Positions 28,736 to 50,602 of a stretch of DNA of 64,000 nucleotides are shown here, piece after piece (positions within the stretch are counted from its first letter, which is position 1; each line of letters begins with the position of its first letter). The DNA lies in contig JACPLO010000002.1 in assembly GCA_016186495.1 (NCBI GenBank), forward strand, positions 6,857 to 70,856. Reading direction: 5' to 3'. The notes under the pieces are model-generated. The model did no database searches. It was not told the origin of the DNA and was given only the letters and a program-made list of their open reading frames with translations. Made by a program: the position numbers and the translations under genes. The stretch comes from Candidatus Niyogibacteria bacterium. Lineage in GTDB: Bacteria; Patescibacteriota; Minisyncoccia; JACROR01.

Positions 28736-28858
28736 TCCCGTTAGAGATTAAAGACTTTATTTTTTAACGGAATTTAAAAATATCTTTAATAATGATAATT
28801 AGAAATTATAAGAATAATTTACGGAAATGATTAAAATCATTTCCTATCTCTAACGGGA
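28736..28858. mobile_element. Family A element, 123-bp subfamily, flanked by TGAA, at tsf start
   Basis: TGAA tcccgttagagat ... atctctaacggga TGAA. Confidence 0.93.
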
Positions 28859-29453: not shown

Positions 29454-29876
29454 ATGTTTTTTTTCTTAATTTTAATTATTGTTTCTTTTTTTGGAATTTT
29501 AACGACTATTTTCAGGCATTGGCCGCGCGTCCGTTCTTTGCCGCCGGAAGAGATTTCTTCGGTTTTAGCGGGGAGCCGTTCATTTTTGGACGGATTTATT
29601 TTTGGTTTTCTTATTCCGTCTTTCCGGCGCGTTCAGAGCAGTTGCGTGCCGATATTTTACGTTACTTCGGAAAAAACCGTCAGGCGGTCGCGCCTTTTAA
29701 TCCTTAAAATAGAGAGCCGCCTTCAAAAAATAACCGACCATTTGAAAGGCAGGCGGATTTTGAACGTCCAAAACAAAAATAATGGCCGCAATTATGAATA
29801 CTGGCAGGAGATAAACGAACATCAAAACGGTTTAAAAGAGGAAATAAAAGAAGGAGAAAAACCTAAGCCGAGGTAG
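29454..29876 (+). CDS. Hypothetical membrane-anchored protein
   Basis: N-terminal TM; stop codon falls inside the decayed tRNA 5' half. Confidence 0.65.
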   Translation: MFFFLILIIVSFFGILTTIFRHWPRVRSLPPEEISSVLAGSRSFLDGFIFGFLIPSFRRVQSSCVPIFYVTSEKTVRRSRLLILKIESRLQKITDHLKGRRILNVQNKNNGRNYEYWQEINEHQNGLKEEIKEGEKPKPR

Positions 29877-29904
29877 CTCAAAAGCAGAGCAATGGTTTTG
29901 CCCG

Positions 29905-30009
29905 CCCCGTTAGAAATGCCGACGTAGCTCAGTGGTAGAGCAACGGTTTTGTAAACCGTAGGTCGTGGGTTCAAATCCCTCCGTCGGCTCATCGGCATTT
30001 CTAACGGGG
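29905..30009. mobile_element. Family A element, 105 bp, carrying a tRNA gene
   Basis: 18-bp perfect IR ccccgttagaaatgccga / tcggcatttctaacgggg; right flank TAAA, left flank CCCG. Confidence 0.9.
29918..29989 (+). tRNA. tRNA-Thr(TGT), inside the element
   Basis: GCCGACG/CGTCGGC acceptor, GCTC/GAGC D-stem, ACGGT TTTGTAA ACCGT, GGTTCAAATCC; one T-stem mismatch. Confidence 0.9.
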
Positions 30010-30157
30010 TAAACAGGTTGGAGGTTCGAATCTTCTCCTCGACTCCAAGATTAGATTTTTTACAATCATAATTCATGCGGCTTGCTTATTTATCAATGGA
30101 GATTAAAAAATGTTAATATTATGTTATGAAAGTTGTTCTGCTAACGTTCAAGTCCTC

Positions 30158-43466: not shown

Positions 43467-43588
43467 TCCCGTTAGAGATTAAAACCTTTATTTTTTAACG
43501 GAATTTAAAAATAACATCAATGAAAATAATTAGAATTACAAGAATAATTCACGGAAATGATTTTAATCATTTCCTATCTCTAACGGGA
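43467..43588. mobile_element. Family A element, 122 bp (123-bp subfamily), flanked by TGAA, at scpB start
   Basis: TGAA tcccgttagagat ... atctctaacggga TGAA; interior similar to 28736-28858. Confidence 0.93.
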
Positions 43589-50479: not shown

Positions 50480-50602
50480 TCCCGTTAGAGATTAAAACCT
50501 TTATTTTTTAACGGAATTTAAAAATATCATCAATGAAGATAATTGGAAATTACAAGAATAATTTACGGAAATGATTTTAATCATTTCCTATCTCTAACAG
50601 GA
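50480..50602. mobile_element. Family A element, 123-bp subfamily, flanked by TGAA
   Basis: TGAA tcccgttagagat ... atctctaacagga TGAA. Confidence 0.92.

Follow-up and report, generated by a model that had tools for sequence, protein, structure and literature searches.

The window analysed here is a 64,000-nucleotide stretch of a Candidatus Niyogibacteria genome (G000; 654-kb assembly, 12 contigs, 100% complete, 48 tRNA calls). On its + strand lies an rpsB-tsf-orf-tRNA-Thr locus, of which the third gene is a 140-aa ORF (29454..29876) with no Pfam match. The stop codon of this ORF (TAG, 29874-29876) falls inside the D-stem of the 5' half of a dead tRNA-Thr gene; its orthologues in G001 (same genus) and G118 (another family) end ahead of the tRNA. 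That 5' half (29867..29900) covers positions 1-35 of the resident tRNA-Thr(UGU), now displaced, and behind it, all on the + strand, follow a CCCG tag (29901..29904), a left flank of the CYYG type typical of tRNA cassettes and without target duplication, a left 13-bp inverted repeat (IR; 29905..29917) and an intact cargo tRNA-Thr(UGU) without an encoded CCA (29918..29989). Beyond the cargo lie a second TCGGC (29992..29996), a predicted competitor of the acceptor strand in the precursor, the right 13-bp IR (29997..30009) and TAAA (30010..30013). This TAAA is a right flank of the TRAA type; it corresponds to tRNA positions 36-39 and occupies the place of the stop codon in related nuclease elements. 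The displaced 3' part (30014..30047) retains the T arm, acceptor strand and CCA, and has lost 3 nt of the anticodon stem.

The initial annotation had described a complete tRNA-Thr(TGT) gene inside the halves of another one split in the anticodon loop, the 3' half (30010-30047) ending in CCA, and both observations were borne out. The inner gene was called by ARAGORN and matched Rfam RF00005 (76.5 bits, E 5e-15). As had also been proposed, the IR reaches into the first five bases of this tRNA, up to 29922, giving a perfect 18-bp inverted repeat (29905-29922/29992-30009). The element had been given as 105 bp. That length holds for the IR-bounded part (29905-30009), but 109 bp separate the two halves when CCCG is counted, so that the inserted unit is CCCG plus 105 bp (plus TAAA), i.e. 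109-113 bp.

The outer and inner 5' halves are 82% identical over 34 nt, and the rejoined outer tRNA matches the inner gene at 55 of 72 positions. The outer copy shows a C2.A71 mismatch, lacks the D-loop GG and misses 3 nt of the anticodon stem; ARAGORN at its default threshold called neither the in-silico rejoined outer gene nor the junction forms. The resident gene is dead. No second Thr(TGT) was detected in the assembly, even at a relaxed threshold, and the long ORFs of G000 hold 1117 ACA codons among 162,966. Being the sole Thr(UGU) of the assembly, the cargo is likely required for survival, and as the sole UGU reader we infer it to be essential in G000. No promoter-like site was found on the + strand upstream of the tRNA (29600-29900).

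Misassembly was checked with Logan contigs from four runs of two studies; one of these runs may be the source sample. In each run they extended across the left junction (from 29500 to 29941-29952) and across the right one (from 29950-29973 to 30400), with no one contig crossing the full stretch. The one joint that skipped the insert, in run X1 (side 25 nt), has different stem letters and was attributed to the tRNA of another organism; contigs are blind to rare empty sites.

Horizontal movement of the tRNA-Thr cassette

Throughout the class, a tRNA-Thr(UGU) locus is conserved behind rpsB-tsf-orf. Among 29 loci fetched by similarity, 21 were linked to tsf, of which 17 had a plain gene and 4 had this IR. 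Plain tRNA-Thr genes stand at the orthologous locus in G001 (EF-Ts 90% identical) and in G002 of the same family, whereas G118 carries a cassette at its rpsB-tsf locus that is identical to that of G000 at 111 of 113 bases. The neighbours of the two cassettes are far more diverged (EF-Ts 52%, S2 50% and the ORF 31% identical), as are the outer tRNA halves (26/35 and 21/31 identical), and identity past the flanking 4-mers extends for only 5 nt per side. This comparison shows that the cassette moved horizontally as a unit, alone, and inserted site-specifically.

The relic in G034 is itself a former 91-bp cassette. Near-identical 91-bp cassettes bear different left tags, which indicates that junctions were made more than once. 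The plain tRNA-Thr of G001 (L007) is preceded by GATTAGAAAT, close to the tail of the left IR of the cassette; this gene may represent an older cassette that has eroded completely, or the likeness may be due to chance, the TAG being also the stop of the ORF.

The inverted-repeat family in the source genome

The IR (YCCCGTTAGA...TCTAACGGGR) forms 54 paired copies in G000. The tRNA-free pairings have an identical 4-mer on both sides in 36 of 47 cases, and this 4-mer differs within subfamilies. A tRNA is enclosed in seven copies (Thr-TGT, Gln-CTG, Leu-CAG, Val-TAC, Ala-CGC, Arg-TCG and Val-GAC); their flanks are never equal, one side reading CYYG and the opposite side TRAA, and most of them lie within a relic of the same tRNA. 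The Thr cassette is thus not a one-off, with at least seven cassettes sharing its IR in this genome. Addiction to the cargo, as first suggested, does not hold for every cassette, because G000 also possesses a plain Val(TAC) gene.

Three gene-less family members lie on the + strand of the window. One is situated between rpsB and tsf with TGAA on either side (28736..28858), and two others belong to its subfamily (43467..43588 and 50480..50602). Past the IR, both ends of the three copies match the nuclease elements described below at 11-13 of 16 nt, and judging by these ends the copies are deletion derivatives of GIY-YIG elements.

Other nests were seen in the same assembly. A tRNA-Val(TAC) on contig C10 (20500-20850, - strand) is enclosed in three to four layers of two IR families. 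Its innermost gene and its outermost layer have identical 5' halves, and one IR begins with CCCGTCAT, which resembles the NTS upstream motif. A tRNA-Pro(GGG) nest (C11:63545-63720) has a different, AT-rich IR, a tRNA-Val(CAC) nest (C3:60060-60260) has a variant of the main IR, and the tRNA-Gln(CTG) cassette (C6:25711-25846, - strand) sits in the T-loop of the old gene. The assembly has no convincing tRNA-Gln(TTG) and two tRNA-Ile(TAT) genes. A 41-bp IR element (C11:16607-16647) lies, apparently in frame, inside the sole Xer-like tyrosine recombinase frame.

Breadth, target rule and insertion scars

The IR-tRNA-IR pattern matched at least 120 stretches in GTDB and occurred in 38 of 401 genomes of the class, with 0 matches for the reversed control. 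Among the matches listed, the carriers of the family were labelled as Patescibacteria groups in 68 of 80 records, as unclassified in 7 and as others in 5. Two tRNA-Ala(CGC) cassettes (L036, L049) come from records labelled Bdellovibrionales and Gammaproteobacteria; these may reflect bin contamination or real spread beyond Patescibacteria.

Pooling and de-duplication left 142 distinct matches, of which 133, mostly from Patescibacteria, contain a tRNA, with 21 anticodons in all; G239, tRNA-free by eye, was left out of the genome list. Both halves mapped into a gene of the same anticodon for 85 of the 133, compared with 52 of 2482 (2%) in a wrong-amino-acid control, and 48 cassettes were not mappable. 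Of the mapped insertions, 72 lie in the anticodon arm, 9 in the D-loop, 3 in the T-loop and 1 in the variable region. A cruder balanced test on 76 of 80 loci (3 tRNA-free loci and 1 with a short flank were dropped) assigned 45 to the same anticodon, 13 to the same amino acid and 18 to others. The relic was on the cargo strand in 62 of the 76 scorable cases and on the opposite strand in 0.

None of the 133 tRNA cassettes had equal flanks, i.e. a target duplication. The GTAAA target named in the initial annotation therefore describes one half of the junction only. Pieces of 2-7 nt were lost from the targets, with T first in 66 of 83 and G last in 78 of 83, an echo of TRAA and CYYG. Most Thr(UGU) cassettes show the loss of positions 36-42, seen as the 3-nt gap beside TAAA. 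Since this loss recurs among Thr(UGU) cassettes, the stem deletion in the window reads as an insertion scar rather than later decay, as which it had first been listed together with the mismatch and D-loop defects. These alignments show cassettes inserted into resident genes of the same anticodon, with a few target bases removed and none duplicated. Together with the near-identical cassette in another family and the plain genes in relatives, the family-wide anticodon match upholds the original idea of a mini-element delivering a whole same-anticodon replacement.

Cassettes measure 90-140 bp. The smallest (90-93 bp) have an IR overlapping U73-C74, and some cassettes reinvade earlier ones to give several nested layers. 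The similarity of a cargo to its own outer relic was not significantly higher than to the remaining relics sharing its anticodon (n = 62, p = 0.30), and the test thus gives no support for guidance by close homology.

Several tRNA relics (L046, L004, L043, L077 and others) contain extra small hairpins tagged with CYYG at the T-loop and D-loop, some of other palindrome families. Nested tRNA-Thr genes in L009 (G012) and L017 (G040) have other IR families, also with a CGGGA end followed by TAAA; a census of one IR therefore undercounts the phenomenon.

GIY-YIG nuclease elements as the candidate mobiliser

A search for starts of the form CYYG-IR returned two IRs with a start codon immediately behind them. 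The elements first seen were 276-280 bp long, with an 86-89-aa GIY-YIG ORF as the sole gene and the right 4-mer as its stop codon. In total, 108 distinct elements of 263-317 bp (about 280) were collected; 106 have an undamaged ORF, and in 67 the right flank serves as the stop codon. The catalytic Y, YTG, R, H and E are at least 95% conserved among them. Positions 1, 11 and 13 of the 13-bp stem covary in the nuclease elements and likewise in the tRNA cassettes. Flanks of the nuclease elements were equal in 30, CYYG-left as in cassettes in 10, TTYA/TRAA in 22 and other in 46. The 109 loci of GIY-YIG relatives had this IR (78), another IR (16) or none by script (15, including script misses).

Nuclease elements were present in 13 of 37 cassette genomes and in 29 of 364 others (OR 6.3, p = 2e-5, with kin not independent); G054 and G359, which lack the gene by eye, were left out of the nuclease genome list. 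The element pattern was unmatched in 24 of the 37 cassette genomes, and no cognate nuclease element was found in G000. The only GIY-YIG gene of G000 (C9, L032:1480-1770) has its own, different IR (TCCCTCACCC...GGGTGAGGGA), which suggests that several nuclease-IR pairs exist. No tRNA was found inside the IRs of the 109 nuclease loci, and only 3 had one within 150 nt. We regard the GIY-YIG nuclease as the probable mobiliser of the cassettes.

The only solved relatives of the nuclease are the UPF0213 proteins BH0048 (PDB 1zg2, E 4e-7) and EF2693 (1ywl, E 8e-4), whose entries describe hypothetical proteins and give no mobile-element context. An NCBIfam search with the nuclease yielded nothing over the cut-off. 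Profile searches of G000 for four families, Y1 (PF01797), IS110, DDE_Tnp_1 (PF01609) and reverse transcriptase, gave no match; one Xer-like tyrosine recombinase is present.

Viral contigs contained no relative of the nuclease. The element-size pattern matched them 19 times, 0 with a GIY-YIG motif, and the cassette pattern 5 times; the 2 matches inspected were a tRNA-free repeat, and there was no tRNA cassette among those examined. A single match resembling a circle junction, with an 8-nt spacer, lay within unrelated sequence and was rejected. The IR resembles GTTRRRY, and a Xer/integron reading of it was dropped because the spacer would be 4 bp.

Discussion

Proposed mechanism

We consider it probable (about 0.68) that the locus holds a non-autonomous mobile tRNA cassette, CCCG-IR-tRNA-IR-TAAA, which is mobilised in trans by a GIY-YIG nuclease and replaces the cognate gene. 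The nuclease would bind the IR stem in single-stranded DNA with the cargo looped out; both DNA strands of the window cassette are predicted to fold into stems of at least 18 bp. Like SsnA at its own hairpin, it would then cleave each strand about 4 nt 5' of the stem. This would release the ends CYYG and TTYA, which would join the target through microhomology of 1-4 nt, and host repair would complete the reaction. We know of no strand transfer by GIY-YIG nucleases. Base pairing of the cargo might steer the cassette to its cognate gene, the least certain step, which we rate slightly below an even chance. The insertion would be tolerated because the cargo replaces the gene that it breaks. Once in place the cargo would be the only reader of ACA, so that its precise loss would leave behind a dead gene; a cargo that is the sole UGU reader could not be lost cleanly.

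The cargo would be part of the rpsB-tsf operon transcript and would reach its mature form through RNase P, 3' trimming and CCA addition; G000 has an RNase P RNA and a PolyA_pol-family gene of the CCA-adding type. That GCCGA at the start of the tRNA could pair with TCGGC at 29992-29996 instead of its own acceptor strand was foreseen in the initial annotation, and folding agrees: in the RNA precursor the IR extension is predicted at -53.7 and the acceptor stem at -47.9 kcal/mol, 5.8 in favour of the IR extension, so maturation is not self-evident. The acceptor strand would be transcribed first, and a cut by RNase P would take away the competing TCGGC. This extra TCGGC may be left over from the 3' end of a previous cargo.

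Alternative explanations

The same cassette with the same outcome could be moved by an undetected DDE, HUH, IS110-type or Xer-like enzyme, the GIY-YIG gene being a mere passenger. The equal, subfamily-variable 4-mers in 36 of 47 tRNA-free pairings resemble DDE target duplications, G000 has one tyrosine recombinase, and the cognate nuclease was not found in G000. Against such a mover, however, Y1, IS110, DDE_Tnp_1 and reverse transcriptase, the four families searched, had no match in G000, and GIY-YIG is the only recurring gene among the IR-started matches listed. The gene's frame is undamaged in 106 of 108 elements, with the right flank as stop in 67, and further GIY-YIG relatives possess different IRs of their own. 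We regard another mover as unlikely. It is less probable again that cassettes insert unguided at many loop sites, that those in cognate tRNA genes survive, and that they then spread by recombination in the tRNA halves, as in homing-like gene conversion. Junction sequences shared across genomes would fit this course, as would the negative cargo-relic test and C43 of the relic, which is unpaired with its own A27 in the window and paired in G118, as if derived from a donor. Yet copies at neutral sites should then greatly outnumber those in one 72-bp gene, and at least 85 of 133 lie in the cognate gene. Moreover, the 5 nt shared by G000 and G118 beyond each 4-mer are too short for RecA, and the different left tags on near-identical 91-bp cassettes show junctions formed repeatedly.

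An intervening sequence acting at the RNA level, with the outer tRNA cut and ligated or with a two-conformation regulatory switch kept by the host, would explain why the insert in its entirety forms a single long hairpin at position 35/36 and why the precursor favours the IR extension. It is contradicted by the failure of the rejoined gene in ARAGORN, by its acceptor, D-loop and anticodon-stem defects, and by the overlapping stop codon; Rfam shows no intron but only the tRNA, relics elsewhere are eroded or full of further hairpins, the competing TCGGC of G118 has a mismatch, and most cassettes lack the extension. We therefore hold it very improbable. An assembly artefact built from similar tRNA sequences would agree with the lack of a single Logan contig across the stretch, but it has a negligible probability, given that both junctions lie deep within contigs of four runs from two studies, that the same cassette occurs in another genome with different flanks, and that there are 133 independent cases.

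Comparison with known systems

The proposed cassette works like tRNA-dependent lysogeny, yet it is no member of that system, having no phage, integrase or att core. The published account for actinobacteriophages (Guerrero-Bustamante and Hatfull 2024, PMC10865867) describes a prophage tens of kb long, equipped with a tyrosine integrase and an att core of about 10 bp, that breaks an essential host tRNA without rebuilding it and complements it with a phage tRNA of the same isotype. The Thr locus is alike in that the tRNA is disrupted without rebuilding and the element holds a tRNA whose isotype matches. Unlike the prophages, the cassettes are 90-140 bp long, have no ORF, are bounded by inverted repeats, share no core with the target and cost it 2-7 bases. 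They also serve 21 anticodons with one IR family, nest repeatedly, and were not found among the viral matches examined.

The closest enzymatic precedent is SsnA of Neisseria, a 94-aa GIY-YIG nuclease which, according to Chenal et al. (2025, PMC11893778), binds an ssDNA hairpin and cuts a few bases 5' of it, requires the three bases upstream of the stem and accepts extended loops. The authors liken the Ssn layout to an insertion sequence; the paper shows cutting, not mobility. Its main text makes no mention of tRNA or Patescibacteria, and no CPR name was found in 12 supplements searched. Both systems have a single-domain GIY-YIG gene of about 90 aa flanked by its own repeat and many gene-less repeat copies, and the catalytic Y6/Y17/E64 of Ssn correspond to Y5/Y16/E62 of the cassette-linked nuclease. 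In contrast to Ssn, the two repeat arms here form a single stem around the entire gene or cargo. The SRM motif, known from Ssn, was found at 0 of 78 nuclease loci and not at the Thr cassette.

Islander genomic islands, as described in PMC4383910, use the anticodon loop and T-loop region as sites, and their tyrosine integrase restores the target with a tRNA fragment. In such islands the fragment displaced from the target lies at the far end. The cassettes use the same two regions and D-loop sites too, but they destroy the target, supply a whole separate gene and leave the old halves outside.

Bacterial MITEs and palindromic elements (Correia, RUP, Rickettsia RPE) are short, non-coding and multicopy, with terminal inverted repeats. 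Known MITEs depend on DDE transposases and, to our knowledge, carry no functional tRNA. The family shares with them the terminal inverted repeats, the lack of a transposase, the many copies and, in 36 of 47 tRNA-free pairings, equal 4-bp flanks. It differs in that the tRNA cassettes have no target duplication (0/133) and go to one cognate gene, and in that the same ends enclose GIY-YIG genes and no DDE-transposase IS, with PF01609, the DDE family searched, not found in G000. The Y1 HUH transposase of IS200/IS605 and REP-RAYT (PF01797) was not found in G000. Unlike a group I or BHB tRNA intron, the locus shows only tRNA in Rfam, and the rejoined gene is defective.

Implications

A literature search, conducted mostly among papers outside subscription, did not turn up any account of nested tRNA cassettes or GIY-YIG mini-transposons. 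The logic of replacement is known from phage tRNA-dependent lysogeny, and each ingredient has a precedent; for the combination we found none. We tentatively raise the further possibility, which we hold somewhat less likely than not, that this is a new class of mobile DNA, in which a GIY-YIG protein of about 86 residues would be the sole enzyme, a 13-bp stem would be recognised in ssDNA, cargo in the loop would be moved, and tRNA cargo would guide itself to the cognate gene. Serially nested, self-complementing replacement would then be turning over the tRNA set of Patescibacteria.

If true, the proposal would mean a new transposition chemistry, in which a GIY-YIG nuclease acts without a known transposase, and a self-complementing selfish element smaller than any other known. 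With this system, the suggested mobilisation of repeats by Ssn-like nucleases could be tested directly. Should cargo homology determine the target, the cassettes would also amount to a very compact programmable insertion system. For Patescibacteria, the cassettes show that tRNA genes, usually regarded as stable core markers, undergo repeated horizontal swapping, which touches about a tenth of one class through this IR family alone.
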